Part shown: piece after piece, positions 1 to 10,264 of the stretch
Numbering within the stretch: the first letter of the stretch is position 1
Layout: each line of letters starts with the position of its first letter
Source: Escherichia coli
Lineage (GTDB): Bacteria; Pseudomonadota; Gammaproteobacteria; Enterobacterales; Enterobacteriaceae
Direction: 5' to 3' (one strand)
DNA length: 64,000 bases
Assembly: GCF_013122565.1 (NCBI RefSeq)
Contig: NZ_CP053258.1
Notes under the pieces: generated by a model
Told to the model about the DNA's origin: nothing
What the model saw: only the letters and a program-made list of their open reading frames with translations
Database searches by the model: none
Made by a program: the position numbers and the translations under genes

Positions 1-208
1 AGCGCCAGTTGCCATGCTGCGCATACTGCTCGCCAAGCGCATCACTTAACAGTTGTAATCGCTGTTCATTACCATGCTTGATGTAATCAATAAAGCCACG
101 CTCAAAACTGATACGCACCGCCCAGTGCATACTGATCAGCAAGACAATGCAGGTGGCGAAAATCGCCAGAAACAGTTTGCCGGTAATACCGGGTCGCCAG
201 AACTTCAT
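1..208 (-). CDS. baeS: Sensor histidine kinase BaeS, N-terminal 69 codons only (gene continues beyond the window edge)
   Basis: Hand translation of the minus strand from the ATG at 208 gives [39 protein letters not shown]... with no stop down to position 1; start overlaps the mdtD stop by 4 nt. Matches recalled BaeS N-terminus. Confidence 0.8.
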
Positions 209-1620
209 TGCGCGCTCCTTTTTCGCCGCGAAATAGCTACATTTTGATGCGTATCGTTCGGCACTCTGGCAAAGATGAACGCCGGAAGGGCGATGATAAA
301 CGCCATGCTAAGCCAGGTGTACATAAAGACGGTTTGTGTGGTGCCGCTGTCGACGCTGACATGCTGCGAACCAAAAAGTCCCAGCAACAGCCCGGCGATG
401 GTGACGCCGATACTCATCGACAATTGCATAATCATCGACAGCAGACTGTTGCCGCTGCTCGCCAGATTGTCCGGGAGATCTTTCAGCGTCAGGGTGTTCA
501 TGGAGGAGAAACGGGTCGAGTTGACCATCCCTTGTAAAAACAGGACGAACGGCAAAACGTAGTACCAGCCCAACAGAGCGGTAGTCATAAACAACAGGGT
601 GACCAGCGACAGACCCAGCGTGGTCGCTACCAGTACCCGACGATAACCAAAGCGATTCACCACCTGTACAACAATCCGCTTCATCCCCATGCTGCCAAGC
701 ACCATCGGGATCATCATCAGTCCGGCATGAAACGGTGAGAAGCCAAGGCCAATTTGCAGGAAAACCGGCGTCATAAAGGGCAACATGCCGCTACCGATAC
801 GTCCGGCAAAGCTCCCCGCCAGGCCCAGCGAAAAGGTACGAGTGCGGAACAGTTTCAGACTGAAAAGAGCGCGGTTGTTATTTCTGGCGTGCAGCAGATA
901 AAGCACCAGTGCCACCACGCCAACTGCGACCAGGCCAGCAATCGCCAGCGGCGATAAACCTGTACCTTTACTGCCGTCCAGCGCCAGGGTTAATACCGCC
1001 ATGCCAACCGCCAGCAATAAAAATCCGGAGAGATCAAAGCGCCGCGTCTGCATGGTGTAGTTCGGCATTAACATCAGCGTGGCGATCGCGCCGATAATCC
1101 CCACCGGAATGTTGATCAAAAAGATCCAGTGCCAGGAGGCGTATTCCACCAACAGACCGCCGAGCGCCGGACCGAGCAGCGGCCCGACCTGACCGGGTAA
1201 CGTGACAAAGGTCATCGCCGCCATATATTGCTCGCGCGGTACGATTTTCATCACCGTCAACCTGCCGACCGGCACCATCATCGCACCGCCAACACCCTGT
1301 AACGCACGTGCCAGCAACAGTTCGTTCAGCGTGCCGGAAAGCGCGCAAAACAGTGAACCGAGAGTAAACAGCACGATGGCGGTAAAGAAAATATTGCGCA
1401 CGCCGACTTTGTCCGCCAGCCAGCCGCTGGCGGGCAGCATCACCGCCACGGTCAGCACATAAGAGACAATGACCATGTGCATATGCAACGGACTTTCCCC
1501 GAGGCTTTGCGCCATTGAGGGAAGGGCGGTGTTTACGATGGTGGTGTCCAGCGACTGCATAAAGAAGCCGAAAGCCACAATCCACAATTGCCAGCGGGTG
1601 CTGTCGGGAAGATCTGTCAT
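205..1620 (-). CDS. mdtD: MFS-type multidrug efflux transporter MdtD (471 aa)
   Basis: 471-aa ORF in the track, highly hydrophobic multi-TM protein; position directly downstream of mdtC and overlapping baeS as in the known mdtABCD-baeSR operon. Confidence 0.85.
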
Positions 1621-4600
1621 TTACTCGGTTACCGTTTGTTTAGGTTTACGCGAAAAACGCAGCCGCAGACGGTCGAAAAAGAGATACACCACCGGCGTGG
1701 TATACAGCGTCAGGAGCTGACTCATCACCAGACCGCCGACAATGGTGATCCCCAAGGGTTGGCGCAGCTCCGAGCCGTCACCGCCCGACAACACCAGCGG
1801 CAGCGCGCCAAACAGCGCCGCCAGGGTAGTCATCATAATCGGGCGAAAACGCAGCAGACAGGCCTGGAAAATAGCTTCCTGCGGCGTCAGGTTACCGTGC
1901 CGTTGGGCTTCAAGCGCAAAATCGACCATCATAATGGCGTTTTTCTTCACGATGCCGATTAATAGCATGATCCCTATCAGGGCGATTAGGCTGAACGGGG
2001 CATTGAACAGCTCCAGCGCCAGCAGCGCTCCAACGCCCGCCGAGGGCAGGGTGGAGAGAATCGTCAGCGGATGTACGTAACTCTCGTAAAGGATACCCAG
2101 CACGATATACACCGTGGCGATGGCGGCGATAATCAGGATCACCTGCGAGTTCATCGTCTCCTGGAACACCTGCGCCGTGCCGGCAAAACTGCCGCGCACC
2201 GTCGAAGGCACGCCAAGCTGGGTCATTGCGCGGTCGATCGCGGCACTGGCGTCCGAGAGCGATTTCCCGGTCGGCAGGTTGAACGAGATGGTCGAGGCCG
2301 CCGATAATCCCTGATGATTCACCGACAGCGGAGCATTCGCCGGTTGCCATTTAGCGAAATACGACAGCGGGATCGCTTTGCCTTCGTTATTGATAACGAA
2401 CATTTTTTCCAGCGCGCTGATGTCCTGGGTATAGCGCGGATCCACTTCCATCACCACTTTATACTGGTTCATCGGCTGGTAAATGGTCGAGATTTGCCGC
2501 TGACCGAAGGCGTTATTTAACAGGCTGTTGGCGGCCTGTACGTCGATTCCCAGCCGTGCCATGGTGTCGCGATCGTAAACCAGATTCATCTCCGCGCCGT
2601 TATCCTGCTGATCGGAGTTCACGTCCGCCAGTTCCGGCAATGTCGCCAGTTTTTTGCGGATTTTCGGCTCCCATTCGCGCAGTGCCGCCAGGTCGTCGGA
2701 TAACAACGTGTACTGGTAGCTGGCGTTCGACTGACGCCCACCAACGCGAATATCCTGTACCGCCATCAGGAACAGATTCGCCCCCGGTTCTTTCGCCAGT
2801 TTTACGCGCAGACGGTCGATAATTTGCTGCGCTGTTTCGCTGCGTTCGTCGCGTGGCTTGAGGGTGATAAACATCATGCCGCTGTTCACTCGCGAACCGC
2901 CGGTAAATCCGGTGACATTATCCACTGCCGGATCGTCACGGATAATTTTCATGAAATCCTGCAATTTGCCGCGCATTGCCTGAAACGAAATACTCTGATC
3001 CGCCTGTATCCCGCCCATCAGCACGCCGGTGTCTTGTTCCGGGAAGAAGGTCTTCGGGATCGAGATATAGAGCCAGATATTCAAAGCAATGGTGCCAAGC
3101 AGCACCACGCCCACCAGACGGGTATGATTGAGCACCCATTTCAGTGACTTACCATAGCCTTGTTGCAGGGCTACCAACATGCGACCAAAACCACGCAGTC
3201 GCTTTTGCTCGCGCGGCTTGCTGGCTTTCAGCATCCAGCCACACATCATTGGCGTTAATGTCAGAGAAACCAGCAACGAAATACCAATGGCGACAGAAAG
3301 CGTCACGGCAAACTCGCGTAACAGTCGGCCCGGCAATCCGCCCATCAACAGCAGCGGCAGGAACACCGCCACCAGTGACAGACTCATCGACAGCACCGTA
3401 AAGCCGACTTCGCGAGTACCTTGTAGCGCGGCCTGTAGTGGTTTCATCCCCGCTTCCAGATGACGGGCAATGTTTTCCAGCACCACGATGGCGTCATCCA
3501 CCACGAAACCAGTAGCGATGGTGAGCGCCATTAACGACAGGTTATTGAGACTGAATCCGCACAGGTACATCGCCGCAAACGTACCAATCAGCGAAACCGG
3601 CACCGCAACGGCGGGAATAATAGTGGCGCGACCCGAGCGCAGGAATAAAAAGACCACCAGAATCACCAGCGCCACCGAGATAATCAGCGTTTGCTCGACT
3701 TCTTCCAGCGAGGCGCGAATGGTGGGGGAGCGATCCTGAGCAATTTGCAGATCAATCGCCGCCGGAATGGTCTCCTGCAACTCCGGTAATTTTGCCCGGA
3801 TGCTGTCTACCGTCTGGATAATATTGGCTTCCGGCAGTTTGCGGATCATCAGCAAAATAGCCGGTTTGGCGTTGGTCATCCCGGCGTTGCGCACATCCTG
3901 CACTGAGTCGGTTACCGTTGCCACATCGCCCAGACGAACCGCACCACCATTGTTGTAGTGAATAATCAGCGGCTGATATTCAGCGGCGGTTTTCAGTTCA
4001 TCGTTGGTCTGGATCTGCCAGCGGTGAATGCCATCTTCCAGCGCCCCCTGTGGTTTACGTACGTTGGCATTGCTGATGGCAGTGCGTACGTCGTCCAGCG
4101 ACACGCCCTGATTAAACAGTGCTTGCGGGTTCAGCCCGACGCGCACCGCAGGCAGCGAGCTGCCGCCGACATCGACATCACCGACGCCGTCGATTTGAGA
4201 AATCGTCGGAGCCAGCTGCGTCGAGGCAAAATCGTACAGTTCACCTTGCGAATAAGTATCGGACGTCAGCGTGAGGATCATAATTGGCGCATCCGACGGG
4301 TTCGCTTTGCGATAGGTCGGACGGCTGGGCATCCCGCTGGGCAGCAAACTTTGTGCAGCGTTGATCGCCGCCTGCACATCGCGCGCTGCGCCGTTGATAT
4401 CGCGGTCAAAATCAAACTGCAAAATAATGCGCGTGCTGCCGAGCGAACTGCTGGAGGTCATTTCACTGACCCCGGCAATGCGCCCAAGTGATCGCTCCAG
4501 CGGCGTGGCAACGGAAGACGCCATTGTTTCTGGTGACGCACCGGGCAGCGAGGCGCTGACCATAATCACTGGAAAATCGACCTGCGGCAGCGGGGCGACC

Positions 4601-4698
4601 GGCAGCATACGGAAACCCAGTATGCCGCACAGGGTAATGGCGACCGACAGTAAAATCGTTGCCACCGGGCGGTAAATGAAGAGGGCAAAAAACTTCAC
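1621..4698 (-). CDS. mdtC: RND multidrug efflux pump subunit MdtC (1025 aa)
   Basis: 1025-aa ORF with RND/AcrB-like architecture (12 TM, two large periplasmic loops); start abuts mdtB stop; paralogous to the upstream 1040-aa ORF. Confidence 0.9.
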
Positions 4699-7600
4699 TT
4701 ACGCCTCCTCTTCATGACGGGCAAAGCGACTTTTGGTCCACAATGCCAGGCGGTCGAACAGCAGATAAATCACCGGCGTGGTGAACAGCGTCAGCACCTG
4801 GCTGACAATCAGACCGCCGACCATGCCGATACCTAACGGACGACGCAGTTCCGCGCCGACCCCGGTACTCAACATCAGCGGCAGCGCGCCAAGCAGAGCC
4901 GCCAGGGTGGTCATCAGGATCGGACGAAAACGCAACAGACAAGCCTGGTAGATTGCATCGCGCGGCGACATGCCTTGCTCGCGCTCAGCAGCCAGCGCGA
5001 AGTCGATCATCATGATGGCGTTCTTCTTCACGATACCGATCAGCAAAATAATGCCGATAATCGCAATCACATCCAGTTCGCTACCGGCAATCATTAACGC
5101 CAGCAGTGCGCCAACACCTGCCGTGGGTAGCGTCGAGAGAATGGTGATCGGGTGAATAAAGCTCTCGTACAGAATGCCGAGCACGATATACATCGCCACC
5201 ACCGCCGCGACAATCAGCCAGACGGTGCTGCCCAGCGCCGACTGGAAGGCGAGGGTGCTGCCCTGGAACTGCGTGGTGATATCCACCGGCAGATTCAGAG
5301 TCTTTTCGGTGTCCATAATCGCCTGCACCGCATCGCCCAGCGAATAGTTATCCGGCACGTTAAAGGAGATGGTCGTTACCGGGAACTGATCCAGATGGTT
5401 GATGGAAAGCGGCGCAAAACGCTGCTCAATTTTGGCAATTGAGCTTAACGGCACCACGCCACCGTCGCTGCTGGTCAGGCGAATGGTATCCAGCGCCGCG
5501 AGGCCTGGGGTATTTTCGGTGTTGTGCTCCAGCACCACGCGATACTGGTTAGCCTGAGTATAAATAGTGGAAATCAGCCGCTGACCAAACGCGTTGTACA
5601 GGGCGTTATCGACGTCCGCCATGCTGATCCCCAGACGGCTGGCGCTGTCGCGATCAACATTGACATACGCCACCAGCCCTTTGTCCTGCCAGTCGCTGGA
5701 GACATCAGATAGCTGTGGCAGCTGCTGGAGTTTTTCCATCAACTGTGGCACCCAGGTACTGAGCGCATCCAGTGACGTGGCCTGCAAGGTAAACTGGTAC
5801 TGGGTGCGGCTGACCTGAGTATCGATGGTCAGGTCCTGCGTTGGTTGCAGGAAGAGATCGACGCCCGGCACTTTATCCACCGCCGTTTGCAGACGGGCGA
5901 TGACTTTTTGCACCCGATCATCACGTTCATCCAGCGGTTTGAGGTTGATCTGCAAACGCGCACTGTTCAGCGACGGGTTAGTGCCATCAACGCCAACAAA
6001 TGAGGTCAGACTTTGCACTGCCGGATCCTGCAAAATCACGTCCGCGACCTGGCGTTGCCGCTGGGCCATATTGGCAAAGGAGCTGGATTGCGGTGCCTGC
6101 AAAGTGCCCTGAATAATGCCGTTATCCTGTACCGGGAAGAAACCTTTCGGAATGAACACCCACAATAGAACGCTAAGCAGCAGCGTGCTGAGCGCCACGC
6201 TTAAGGTCAGCCACGGATGATTCAGCACTTTCGCAAGTCCCTGACCATAGGCGGCGATTATCCTGTCGAACATTTTTTCCGAGGCACGGGAGAAGCGGTT
6301 CTGTTTACGCAGTGACTCCTGGCTGAGCATCCGCGCGCACATCATCGGTGTCAGGGTCAGCGACACCACGGCTGAGATCAAAATCGCTACCGCCAGGGTA
6401 ATAGCAAATTCGCGGAACAGTCGCCCGACGATATCGCCCATAAACAGCAGTGGGATCAACACCGCAATCAGCGAGAAGGTCAGCGAGATAATGGTAAAGC
6501 CGATTTCACCCGCGCCTTTGAGCGCCGCCGCCAACGGTTTTTCGCCTTTTTCGATATAGCGGGAAATGTTTTCGATCACCACGATGGCGTCATCGACCAC
6601 AAATCCGGTGGCGATAGTTAACGCCATCAGCGTCAGGTTATTGATTGAAAAATCGAGAAACACCATGACCGCGAAGGTGCCGATTAACGACAGCGGCACT
6701 GCGACGCCGGGAATGATGGTCGCCGGAATATTGCGCAAAAACAGGTAGATAATCATGACTACCAGCGCGATAGCCATCATCAATTCAAACTGAGTATCAT
6801 CGACGGATGCGCGGATATTGGTGGTACGGTCAGAAAGTACCGTCACCTTCACCGATTTCGGCAGACTCTCGGTGAGCTGTGGCAGCATCTGCCGGATGCT
6901 GTCGGCGGTGGAGATAATGTTAGCACCGGGCTGGCGCTGAACATTCATCACAATGGCCTGTTCTTTGTTCGCCCATGCGCCGAGCCAGCTGTTTTCTGCA
7001 CCTTGCTCTACGGTTGCGACATCGCCCAGACGAATCGGCGCGCCGTTCTGGTAGGCGATGATTAGCTGGCGATACTCTTCGGCGGATTGCATCTGGTCGT
7101 TAGCGGAAAGCGTAACCGCACGGGAAGGGCCGTCAAGGCTACCTTTAGCCGAGTTAACGTTAGCGCCGGTAATGGCGGTGCGCACGGTTTCGCTGGTCAG
7201 GCCGAGGGCGGCAATCGCCTGAGCGTTAAGTTTGACGCGAACAGCCGGACGCTGGCCGCCGGAAAGCGTCACCAGACCGACGCCGGAAATCTGCGAGATT
7301 TTCTGCGCGACGCGGGTTTCCACCATATCTTCCACTTGCGTCATCGGCATGGCTGTTGAGGTGACGGCGAGCGTCATGATCGGCGGATCTGCCGGGTTCA
7401 CTTTGCTGTAAACCGGCGGGTTAGGCAGATCGCTCGGCAACAAGTTGGTCGCAGCGTTAATCGCGGCCTGTACTTCCTGCTCGGCGACATCCAGCGGTAA
7501 TGTTAGCTGGAACTGCAAAGTGATAACTGACGCACCGCCGGAACTTTGCGACGACATCTGTTTCAGACCAGACATCTGCCCGAACTGGCGTTCGAGCGGC

Positions 7601-7821
7601 GCGGTAACGGCAGAGGTCATGACATCCGGGCTCGCACCTGGGTAGAGCGTGACCACCTGAATGGTCGGATAGTCCACTTCCGGCAGCGCCGAAACGGGCA
7701 GGGCGCGATAACCGATAATCCCGGCGAGTAAGATCGCCACCATCAGCAGCGTGGTGGCCACAGGACGCATAATAAACAGGCGCGACGGGCCGCCTGTGCT
7801 GCTCGGGGGTAACACCTGCAT
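4699..7821 (-). CDS. mdtB: RND multidrug efflux pump subunit MdtB (1040 aa)
   Basis: 1040-aa RND-family ORF; its ATG overlaps the mdtA stop codon by 1 nt (TGATG), indicating translational coupling. Confidence 0.9.
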
Positions 7822-9068
7822 CAGGAGCGTGCTCCTTTTTTCGCGTATTCGCGGCTGGTGGCTTTCTCTTCCGAAGTGGTGGCGCTCTGGGCTTCCACCA
7901 CTTCCACTTTCGCCCCTTCGGTCAGGCGATCAATGCCGTCTGTCACCACGCGATCGCCCGCAGAAATACCTGCGCGGATCACCACTTTCTGACTGTCCTG
8001 AATGCCCGGCGTCACCAGATGTTTGCTGACCTTGTTTTCGCTATTCAGCACCCAGACAAAATGGCCTTCATTGCCCATTTGCAGGGCGGCTGTTGGGATC
8101 ACCACGGCGTTTTGTTCGGTGTCGACTAACATACGCGCGTTAACAAACTGATTGGGAAACAGCGCATCATCCTGATTATTAAAGCGTGCTTTCACTTTAA
8201 TCGTACCGGTAGTGGCATCGATTTGGTTATCGAGACTTAACAGCGTGCCTTCACTTAATTTCTTCGAGTTGGTGCGATCCCAGGCTTCTACCACCAGCGG
8301 TTTTCCGGTTTTTTGCGCCTGCACAACGGTAGCGATATCGCTTTCCGGCAGGGTAAAGACTAAATCGATAGGATGCGTCTGGGTGATCACCACAATCCCG
8401 GAGGTATCACCACTGGAGATTTGGTTACCAACATCAACCTGCTTGAGACCAACGCGACCATCGACTGGTGCGGTGATGCGGCTCCAGTCGAGTTGCAGCT
8501 GTGCGCTGGCGACGCTTGCTTCATCAGCCTTAATGGTGCCTTCGGTTTCACTGACCAGCGCCTGTTGGGCATCCAGTTCCTGACGAGATACGAGATTGGT
8601 TTTTGCCAGTTGTTGATAACGCGCCAGGTCACGGCGGGCGTTGGCGAGCGTGGCTTTATCTTTTGCCAGTTGGCCCTGGGCTTGTGCTAATGCAACTTTG
8701 AACTGGCTTGGGTCAATTTCTGCCAGTAAATCGCCTGCTTTGACCTGCTGGCCTTCCTGGAAATGTAACGCCATCAGTTGACCGTCCACGCGGCTGCGCA
8801 CCGTAACAGTATTAGCGGCGGTAATGGTGCCAAGCCCGGTGAGGTAACGCGGAACAGCCTGTTCTACTGCGGTCGCCGCCTGAACCGGAGCTAATGGGCC
8901 GGCACGCATACCACGGCGACCACCCGCTGGCGATTGCTGCGCTTGTTTCGTCGCCCCAGGGGCTGCACTCTGGGAGTCATTGCGGCCTTGCCAGAACCAG
9001 AATGCGGCGATGGCGGCGATAACCACCACGATTACGATTACCCAACGGGATTTATAACTGCCTTTCAT
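7821..9068 (-). CDS. mdtA: Membrane fusion protein (periplasmic adaptor) MdtA, 415 aa
   Basis: Track ORF 7821..9215 is 464 aa; I place the start at the internal ATG at 9068 ([16 protein letters not shown]...), which gives the expected 415 aa with a signal/TM N-terminus. The 49 upstream codons are probably not translated. Confidence 0.8.
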
Positions 9069-9121
9069 CGTTAAGAGTTTCTCTTCCTGAAACGTTTCGC
9101 GGAATGATACTAGTGTAGCCA

Positions 9122-9139
9122 GCCAATAAGGGAGAAAAA
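9122..9139 (-). promoter_or_regulatory. Putative BaeR response-regulator binding box upstream of mdtA
   Basis: Plus strand reads GCCAATAAGGGAGAAAAA; its reverse complement TTTTTCTCCCTTATTGGC matches the recalled BaeR consensus TTTTTCTCCATDATTGGC with one mismatch. Located about 55-70 nt upstream of the mdtA start. Confidence 0.55.
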
Positions 9140-9276
9140 TGGAGGAATTATGAAACACTATCGGGAATCGTCTGAATGGCGGGCACATTTGCGAGCACGC
9201 ATCCAGTAATAACACAGGAAACTATTTTATCTACGCGTTAGCGATAGACTGCTTGCATGGCGAAAGGAGGTAAGCC

Positions 9277-9420
9277 GACGATTTCAGCGGGACGCTGAAA
9301 CGGGAAAGCCCCTATAAGGAAAGGGTCATGATGAAGTGGATCATCATCGTGGTGCTCTTAGTCATAAGCTTCCCGGCTTACTAAGACTACCAGGGCGGGG
9401 GAAACCCCGCTCTACCCTCA
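9277..9420 (-). ncRNA. sib: Sib-family antisense sRNA (antitoxin) overlapping ibs copy 1; boundaries approximate
   Basis: Minus-strand sigma70-like promoter: TTGACA (plus 9450..9455 reverse-complemented), 17-nt spacer, TAATTT; the transcript would run antisense across the whole ibs ORF. Length set to about 140 nt by analogy with the known SibA/SibB RNAs. Confidence 0.6.
9328..9384 (+). CDS. ibs: Ibs-family type I toxin peptide, 18 aa (MMKWIIIVVLLVISFPAY)
   Basis: ATGATGAAG... ORF preceded by AAGGAAAGGG Shine-Dalgarno; hydrophobic peptide with the Ibs family signature MMK...VISFPAY. Confidence 0.8.
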   Translation: MMKWIIIVVLLVISFPAY

Positions 9421-9594
9421 CTCCTGAAATTATGCCTTCACGATAAGATTGTCAATCCGCAGGCTTTGTAGTCTGCGATCCTGCCAGCAAATATTCTTTG
9501 CGAGTCGTTACGCAATAATCACACTGGAAACTATTTTATCCGCAAGTCAGCGATAGACTGCATACAGGGCGAAAGGAGGTAAGCCGACGATTTC

Positions 9595-9738
9595 AGCGGG
9601 ACGCTGAAACGGGAAAGCCCCTCCCGAGGAAGGGGCCTTAAATAAGGAAAGGGTCATGATGAAGATACTCATCATCGTGGTGCTCTTAGTGATTAGCTAC
9701 CCAGCATACTAAGACTACCAGGGCGGGGGAAACCCCGC
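9595..9738 (-). ncRNA. sib: Sib-family antisense sRNA overlapping ibs copy 2; boundaries approximate
   Basis: Same minus-strand TTGACA/TAATTT promoter arrangement (TGTCAA at plus 9768..9773) as in copy 1. Confidence 0.6.
9656..9712 (+). CDS. ibs: Ibs-family type I toxin peptide, 18 aa (MMKILIIVVLLVISYPAY)
   Basis: Second repeat unit; same SD spacing and peptide architecture as copy 1. Confidence 0.8.
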   Translation: MMKILIIVVLLVISYPAY

Positions 9739-9939
9739 TCTACCCTCACTCCTGAAATTATGCCTTCACGATAAGATTGTCAATCCGCAGGCTTTGTAGT
9801 CTGCGATCCTGCCAGCAAATATTCTTTGCGAGTCGTTACGCAATAATCACAGAGGAAACTATTTTGTTCACGCGTTAGCGATAGACTGCATTCAGGGCGA
9901 AAGGAGGTAAGCCGACGATTTCAGCGGGATGCTGAAACG

Positions 9940-10083
9940 GGAAACCCTCTCCCGGAGAAGAGGGCTTTTAATAAGGAAAGGGTTATGATGAAGCACGTCA
10001 TCATACTGGTGATACTCTTAGTGATTAGCTTCCAGGCTTACTAAGAACACCAGGGGGAGGGGGAAACCTCTCCCTAACCCTCA
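9940..10083 (-). ncRNA. sib: Sib-family antisense sRNA overlapping ibs copy 3; boundaries approximate
   Basis: Minus-strand promoter with TTGACA (plus 10113..10118 reverse-complemented) and TAATTT after a 17-nt spacer. Confidence 0.55.
9985..10044 (+). CDS. ibs: Ibs-family type I toxin peptide, 19 aa (MMKHVIILVILLVISFQAY)
   Basis: Third repeat unit; ORF one codon longer than the other two and ending FQAY instead of FPAY. Confidence 0.8.
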   Translation: MMKHVIILVILLVISFQAY

Positions 10084-10264
10084 CTCCTGAAATTATGTCA
10101 CTCCGCCCTTAGTGTCAATCGACGGCTCTCCGTTCTTGCGAGGCGAATAGCAAAATTTTCTGCGCCGCCGGGCCTAATTCTGAAAGTTTCTTCGTTTGCT
10201 CTTATTTCATTATTGCAATCGGTATGATACCGGACCTCGATAATTCTCTAAGAAAGGATTTCTT

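Follow-up and report, generated by a model that had tools for sequence, protein, structure and literature searches.

The 147 nt that precede mdtA in the Escherichia coli DNA analysed here (a window of 64,000 nt, to whose numbering all positions refer unless a genome coordinate is given) are very probably the promoter and 5' leader of mdtABCD(-baeSR), non-coding and activated by BaeR as the first-pass annotation of this DNA had proposed. That BaeR switches on mdtABCD-baeSR, and with it the MdtABC drug-efflux pump, under envelope stress is textbook knowledge. The window carries the mdtA promoter known from K-12 in a different E. coli lineage; site, spacing and operon are all shared with K-12. 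The features discussed below are collected in Table 1.

Table 1. Position of the features of the mdtA region in the window, with the number of invariant positions counted in five taxa where a segment was scored
Feature	Position	Strand	Basis	Invariant positions
mdtD, next after mdtC	205..1620		ORF list	
mdtC, next after mdtB	1621..4698		ORF list	
mdtB, after mdtA	4699..7821		ORF list	
mdtA CDS, leading the operon; 415 aa, MdtABC membrane-fusion subunit	7821..9068	-	ORF list, RefSeq, NCBIfam	
In-frame open stretch of 49 codons, very probably promoter and 5' leader, non-coding	9069..9215	-	ORF list, comparison	
Purine-rich element AGGAAGAG, preceding the mdtA ATG by 13-20 nt	9081..9088	-	read from sequence	
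Overlapping -10 candidates TACACT and TAGTAT	9117..9112 and 9112..9107	-	read from sequence	
-10 region	9121..9107			13/15
BaeR box TTTTTCTCCCTTATTGGC (the 18-mer of the first-pass annotation), 17/18 to the Nishino consensus	9139..9122	-	motif scan and shuffles	7/18
3' half of the 18-mer, CTTATTGGC	9130..9122			2/9
Unit 3, TCTCCCTTA, 5/7 to TCTNCANAA, inside the 18-mer	9135..9127	-		
Unit 2, CCTCCATTT, 4/7 to TCTNCANAA, core CTCCAT	9145..9137	-		
Unit 1, GTTTCATAA, 5/7 to TCTNCANAA	9156..9148	-		
20 nt directly upstream (units 1-2), GTTTCATAATTCCTCCATTT	9156..9137			18/20
Far upstream segment	9215..9181			7/35
Small ORF of 19 aa, divergent from mdtA, probably not a gene	GGAGG 9141..9145, ATG 9150, stop 9207..9209	+	read from sequence	
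mdtA-proximal ibs gene, its promoter and start site; divergent from mdtA, overlapping GTG 9215	9207..9257	+		
Three ibs/sib toxin-antitoxin units, Rfam SIB_RNA	9313-9455, 9641-9783, 9970-10118	-		

The known BaeR site of mdtA

A match to the BaeR recognition sequence with a single mismatch had been pointed out within the open stretch, and this match holds. The sequence GCCAATAAGGGAGAAAAA, read on the + strand at 9122..9139, is the reverse complement of TTTTTCTCCCTTATTGGC, which departs at one position only (A10 to C) from the consensus of Nishino, TTTTTCTCCATDATTGGC, in the form in which PMC3799227 and PMC3915751 quote it. When at most one mismatch is allowed, it is the sole match in the 64 kb, and none of 100 dinucleotide shuffles yields any. 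With up to three mismatches, 26% of the shuffles yield a match, so that only the near-exact match carries weight. The box precedes the mdtA ATG by 54-71 nt on the same strand, with mdtB, mdtC and mdtD downstream.

The BaeR sites reported for E. coli number only four, those of spy, mdt-bae, acrD and ycaC (Bury-Moné et al.). As mdt-bae is one of them, the box noticed in the window is one of the source sites of the consensus. The 18-mer is the known mdtA BaeR site of E. coli K-12, where control by BaeR is already established (Baranova and Nikaido 2002; Nagakubo 2002; Nishino 2005, as cited elsewhere). In a gap-free alignment, the sequence from 9158 to the mdtA ATG, box included, is identical to that of K-12, and the whole 147-nt stretch shows three differences (at 9160, 9163 and 9179). 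The K-12 mdtA (yegM) promoter thus shares with the window the 18-mer, its distance to the ATG, the -10 region, the leader and the mdtA-B-C-D order. It differs by these three upstream substitutions, by the presence of two ibs/sib units instead of three and by the lack of a 19-nt deletion in the proximal unit.

The region is matched in 5,416 of the 5,426 complete E. coli genomes, none of which reaches 99% identity over mdtA (98.6% for the best). Of 5,414 E. coli records, 5,291 have the 52-nt core at 9107..9158 unchanged, and the next 52 nt upstream are K-12-identical in only 1,098 of the 4,313 matching records. A scan of genome contigs with a pattern of 16 specified bases, TTTTTCTCCNTNATTGGC, was uninformative, since about 140 chance matches are expected in 298 Gb and the pattern is therefore too short. 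It gave at least 120 matches, nearly all in unrelated taxa, and the only useful one among the matches listed is an E. albertii locus that corresponds to spy.

Occupancy by BaeR was mapped in MG1655 by ChIP-exo (Choudhary et al., PMC7657598, Data Set S2). When the peaks are placed on the window by anchoring on the MG1655 mdtA ATG at 2,154,016, peak_5 (2153931-2153967, signal-to-noise 10.96) covers 9117..9153, with the whole box inside, and peak_6 (2153972-2153998, signal-to-noise 14.99) covers 9086..9112. These are the top two signal-to-noise values in the BaeR sheet. Furthermore, mdtA expression is 16-fold lower (log2 -4.0) in a baeR deletion in the presence of 5% ethanol and unchanged without stress (PMC7657598). 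In the same way, a baeS gain-of-function mutant of Klebsiella, belonging to a species that differs from the one aligned here, shows an increase of mdtA expression (log2 +3.7). Binding and regulation by BaeR are documented for the identical K-12 sequence and can be predicted for the strain of the window. The envelope-stress control of mdtA that had been suggested from the letters alone is therefore borne out by a K-12-identical site, by the MG1655 peaks and by the drop of expression in the baeR deletion.

A co-regulation of mdtA by CpxR has been reported in reviews. No match to the CpxR box GTAAA-N5-GTAAA with up to two mismatches was found in 9069..9215, nor any match with up to one mismatch to TCTNCANAA, a second published BaeR motif (Yamamoto 2008, as quoted in a citing paper). 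Both patterns have many matches elsewhere in the window, and each of them is too short to inform alone. No CpxR ChIP-exo peak was seen at the mdtA promoter in the MG1655 data.

Tandem units and probable architecture of the promoter

Three units resembling TCTNCANAA follow each other in direct orientation at 9156, 9145 and 9135, with a spacing of 11 and 10 bp. Taken singly, these matches are weak (4-5/7), and 17 phased triples of such quality occur in the window, i.e., about 0.02 expected per 147 nt. By its sequence, this succession of three phased TCTNCANAA-like units looks typical of a site for an OmpR/PhoB-type activator. It is proposed that 9127..9156 would be the full tandem site of BaeR, and that the box quoted in the first-pass annotation would be its promoter-proximal third.

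The alignment of the window with K-12, C. freundii, C. amalonaticus, Klebsiella and E. albertii, in which invariance was counted in five taxa, gives very different degrees of conservation along the promoter (Table 1). In this comparison, no other part of the core of the mdtA promoter is as poorly conserved across genera as the widely used 18-bp box. Klebsiella has lost unit 3 and C. freundii has an altered version of it, and almost all the positions of units 1-2 are invariant. It is a live possibility, even if a somewhat doubtful one, that the 18-mer is not the main determinant and that BaeR acts mainly through GTTTCATAA-TT-CCTCCATTT (9156..9137), the ATTGGC-containing 3' half of the box being dispensable; this would refine the box without contradicting it. 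Besides the contrast in invariance between units 1-2 (18/20), the box (7/18) and its 3' half (2/9), this is suggested by Klebsiella, in which AAGCGG replaces CTCCCT and whose mdtA is yet inducible through BaeS (in a different Klebsiella species), and by spy, in which a ChIP-exo peak lies on the equivalent upstream repeat and off the Nishino box. However, the match of the E. coli box to the consensus (17/18) is far beyond chance, the box is wholly within peak_5 when unit 1 is just partly within it, and the consensus was itself derived from BaeR-induced promoters, mdtA among them.

The spy promoter of MG1655 (genome 1825764..1825847) illustrates the relation between the two published motifs. It carries two perfect TCTNCANAA units, TCTTCATAA and TCTGCAAAA, which are 11 bp apart and coincide with BaeR peak_2, the upstream one of its two BaeR ChIP-exo peaks, and its Nishino-type 18-bp box, a perfect match to the consensus, is located between these two peaks. 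As the spy box is outside both peaks, the borders of ChIP-exo peaks are not precise footprints; as it is apart from the TCTNCANAA units, the two motifs mark different places in this promoter. Like mdtA, spy has the shared recognition unit at an 11-bp spacing, and units 1-2 of mdtA (GTTTCATAATTCCTCCATTT) align with TCTTCATAATCTCTGCAAAA of spy. However, spy carries at least four strong units (7/7, 7/7, 6/7 and 7/7) over about 80 bp, at 150-220 nt from its ATG, whereas mdtA carries three weak ones (5/7, 4/7 and 5/7) within 30 bp and near the -10.

Units 1-2 could also owe their invariance to another function, as ribosome-binding site and start of the small ORF of the + strand. A perfect GGAGG located 4 nt ahead of ATG AAA (GGAGG-AATT-ATG-AAA) and invariant across genera would indeed be a near-ideal ribosome-binding site. 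However, the length of the ORF varies among the sequences compared (9, 10, 19, 20 or 32 aa), the frame differs in Klebsiella, no promoter-like site was found upstream on the + strand, and BaeR units 1-2 already account for the same bases, the ribosome-binding site and start being the reverse complement of the invariant units. This explanation of the invariant block is very improbable. Since its length varies and its frame differs in Klebsiella, the small ORF is taken as a by-product of the BaeR units, and 9150..9209 is probably not a gene.

Two overlapping -10 candidates follow the box, whose end is 4 nt from TACACT and 9 nt from TAGTAT, and no -35 hexamer could be recognised at the mdtA promoter. 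This combination of a usable -10 (9117..9107) with no -35 points to an activator-dependent promoter. In the PhoB pho box and at the sites of other OmpR-family activators, the activator site replaces the -35 hexamer. Such sites resemble mdtA by direct repeats separated by about one helical turn, which end about 10 nt upstream of a -10 devoid of a -35, and differ from it in recognition sequence; by analogy with them, BaeR may contact region 4 of sigma-70 at mdtA. A further comparison is offered by the DzrR box of Dickeya and Burkholderia, in which CTCCAT repeats lie upstream of an RND efflux operon and serve an OmpR-family regulator; the footprint of DzrR falls on two such repeats with a spacing of 11 bp (PMC10052836), and the core of mdtA unit 2 is also CTCCAT. 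DzrR nevertheless differs from BaeR, its closest characterised homologue being AdeR and its action being reported as phosphorylation-independent (PMC10052836).

The reading favoured here is activation from the tandem site. Phosphorylated BaeR, a member of the OmpR/PhoB family, would bind the TCTNCANAA-like units of 9156..9127 head-to-tail, one helical turn apart, with the promoter-nearest unit inside the 18-mer and the whole site abutting or overlapping the position expected for the -35. BaeR would recruit the sigma-70 RNA polymerase, in a manner that would be class II-like, transcription would begin around 9100 (with 9105..9099 as the likely interval for the exact start), and translation from the ATG at 9068 would give the signal-anchored MdtA of 415 aa. 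No transcription start of mdtA was found in the accessible full text or in the supplements of Rend-seq and Cappable-seq papers, and the genome-wide map of uninduced cells has none at the mdtA promoter (Kim et al. 2012, PMC3415461). A start near 9100 would be consistent both with the ChIP-exo peak over 9086..9112 and with the absence of a start from the uninduced map.

Transcription of mdtA, alone or additionally, from a sigma-70-like TTCAGA-N18-CATAAT (9176..9147), with a start near 9140 that would leave the box in the leader, is unlikely. This is the sole promoter-like match of a consensus scan (9/12); both its hexamers are kept in Escherichia and Citrobacter, and CATAAT also in Klebsiella. 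However, a single match is no more than shuffles give (1.4 on average), an activator site downstream of the start fits poorly with a 16-fold activation depending on BaeR, and no start is detected there in the uninduced map. Furthermore, the conservation of CATAAT would be explained by its overlap with BaeR unit 1. As a separate observation, TTCAGA-N18-CATAAT and the CAGAC/GAC repeats at 9160..9175 form a conserved block on the minus strand. This block (9147..9176) may serve as a second promoter, or it may be the CpxR site that has been reported.

With a start near 9100, as proposed for the tandem site, the leader would run over 9069..9106 of the minus strand. In Escherichia, Citrobacter and Klebsiella, 26 of these 38 nt are invariant, vs 21 of the first 29 nt of the CDS. 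This predicted leader appears to be conserved beyond the needs of an untranslated spacer, and no Rfam family was found in it.

The open frame and the start of mdtA

As stated in the first-pass annotation, the frame of mdtA remains open over 49 codons ((9215-9068)/3) past the short start and up to 9215, and the six-frame list gives a maximal minus-strand ORF of 464 aa at 7821..9215. In contrast, the ATG that had been placed at 9215 does not exist, as the codon 9215..9213 is GTG. The in-frame starts available upstream are this GTG, the ATG at 9188, which is the first ATG and lies 40 codons up, and a GTG at 9158, 30 codons up. The probability of such an open run is about 0.10 ((61/64)^49), or about 0.06 when the local base composition is taken into account; chance can thus account for about 49-51 open codons in a row.

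Several lines of evidence support the short model of 415 aa, for which the first-pass annotation had opted and which the comparisons indicate to be the right one. In RefSeq, the homologous mdtA has 1,248 nt in C600, MLI104K2 and MG1655, with a start equivalent to 9068. The MdtA of the window, starting at ATG 9068..9066 with MKGSYKSRW, is identical to the deposited E. coli protein of 415 aa, WP_171459197.1 / QJU23727.1, and in every taxon compared the short ATG is where the N-terminus MKGS(Y/N/D)KSRW begins. The NCBIfam model NF008589 (MdtA/MuxA equivalog, 723 bits) aligns from position 3 to 391 of its 392 with residues 53-443 of the 464-aa ORF; as this alignment begins only at residue 53, the family begins at the short start. 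Moreover, AGGAAGAG is the sole Shine-Dalgarno-like element ahead of any candidate start of mdtA; its counterpart in Citrobacter and Klebsiella is AGGATGAG. Many Escherichia MdtA entries (P0015-P0025, P0044) have 394-398 aa and an unchanged N-terminus, which implies that about 20 internal residues of the 415-aa MdtA are deleted in them.

The comparison with other taxa also shows that the extension itself is poorly kept. Above the short ATG, only 4 codons are open in Klebsiella, 19 in C. freundii and 26 in E. albertii, in all three cases without a start codon; the run is of 47 codons in C. amalonaticus. In Klebsiella, the counterpart of the extension contains single-base indels that shift the frame. 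The three substitutions relative to K-12 all fall at codon position 1 or 2 of the extension (third position 0/3), and 27 of the 32 substitutions of the mdtA CDS fall at the third position. These features indicate that the 49-codon extension is non-coding and owes its openness to a chance absence of stop codons.

Models of MdtA with 455 aa are nevertheless common in public databases. They begin with MCP(P/S)FRRF at the ATG equivalent to 9188. For example, P0006 is a 455-aa ENA sequence that represents a cluster of 4,769 members in which 415- and 455-aa forms are mixed, P0123 is found on 348 contigs, including E. coli CE10 (AEQ13166.1), and P0004 is in NCBI nr. These repeated deposits (e.g., P0123 and P0004), together with the open frame of E. 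coli, could be taken as signs that the extension is translated into an MdtA isoform of 455 aa (from ATG 9188) or 464 aa (from GTG 9215). Such an isoform is hardly credible. No purine-rich or Shine-Dalgarno-like element was read ahead of 9188 or 9215, the extension is closed or startless in Klebsiella, C. freundii and E. albertii, with frame-shifting indels in the first, and every K-12 substitution hits a first or second codon position. The extension is also outside the family profile, and it would place 40-49 residues before the conserved signal-anchor N-terminus. Furthermore, the predicted BaeR-dependent transcript would begin downstream of both 9188 and 9215, and GTG 9215 is inside the divergent ibs promoter. 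The 455-aa MdtA is rather a recurrent over-extension by gene callers, in which 40 codons of promoter DNA are translated. As these promoter-including models are found on hundreds of contigs, the short MdtA model should be enforced.

The adjacent ibs/sib array and wider implications

Upstream of mdtA are found the ibs/sib array, then yegL and pphC. The array has three units in the window (9313..10118), vs two in K-12 (sibA and sibB), and three-unit arrays are also present in other E. coli genomes. The promoter of the mdtA-proximal ibs gene was located through the start site and the 50-nt promoter string given for ibsB in the supplement of Kim et al. 2012 (PMC3415461), which the gap-free K-12 alignment places as indicated in Table 1. 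About 340 nt separate mdtA from a phage-integrase fragment upstream of it in the contig of E. albertii.

Compared with K-12, 19 nt are deleted from the mdtA-proximal unit, the junction lying at 9313/9314 (region 9290..9340). This deletion removes the 5' arm and the loop of a GC-rich hairpin, GGCCCCTTCCTCGGGAGGGGC, after which the SibB of MG1655 is annotated to end. A strong stem of 11 bp is predicted for the middle copy and is absent from the mdtA-proximal one. The counterpart of the deleted hairpin is also within the ibs leader. A position of this hairpin beyond the 3' end of Sib, to which the Rfam match that stops before it could have pointed, was rejected, as SibB of MG1655 ends just past the hairpin. 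None of the 5,426 complete genomes of E. coli has this junction. It recurs in GCA_052983875.1, an assembly obtained independently, and the deletion is therefore real and lineage-specific.

No terminator-like site was found between Sib and mdtA. As both are on the same strand, a read-through into mdtA is conceivable. Loss of the Sib terminator, with transcription from the constitutive sib promoter, about 390 nt upstream of mdtA, reading through into mdtABCD-baeSR, is a rather unlikely outcome of the deletion. If this were true, the pump and BaeSR would have a basal expression independent of BaeR, and the in-frame GTG and ATG upstream of mdtA would be on an mRNA for the first time.

The promoter of mdtA has consequences for the analysis of other genomes. 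In searches for BaeR targets with the 18-mer, it should be considered that, in the alignment used here, the box is poorly conserved and the repeat adjoining it upstream is nearly invariant. In the same way, the open frame that crosses this promoter misleads automatic gene callers: it is a real annotation hazard and not a feature of the protein.
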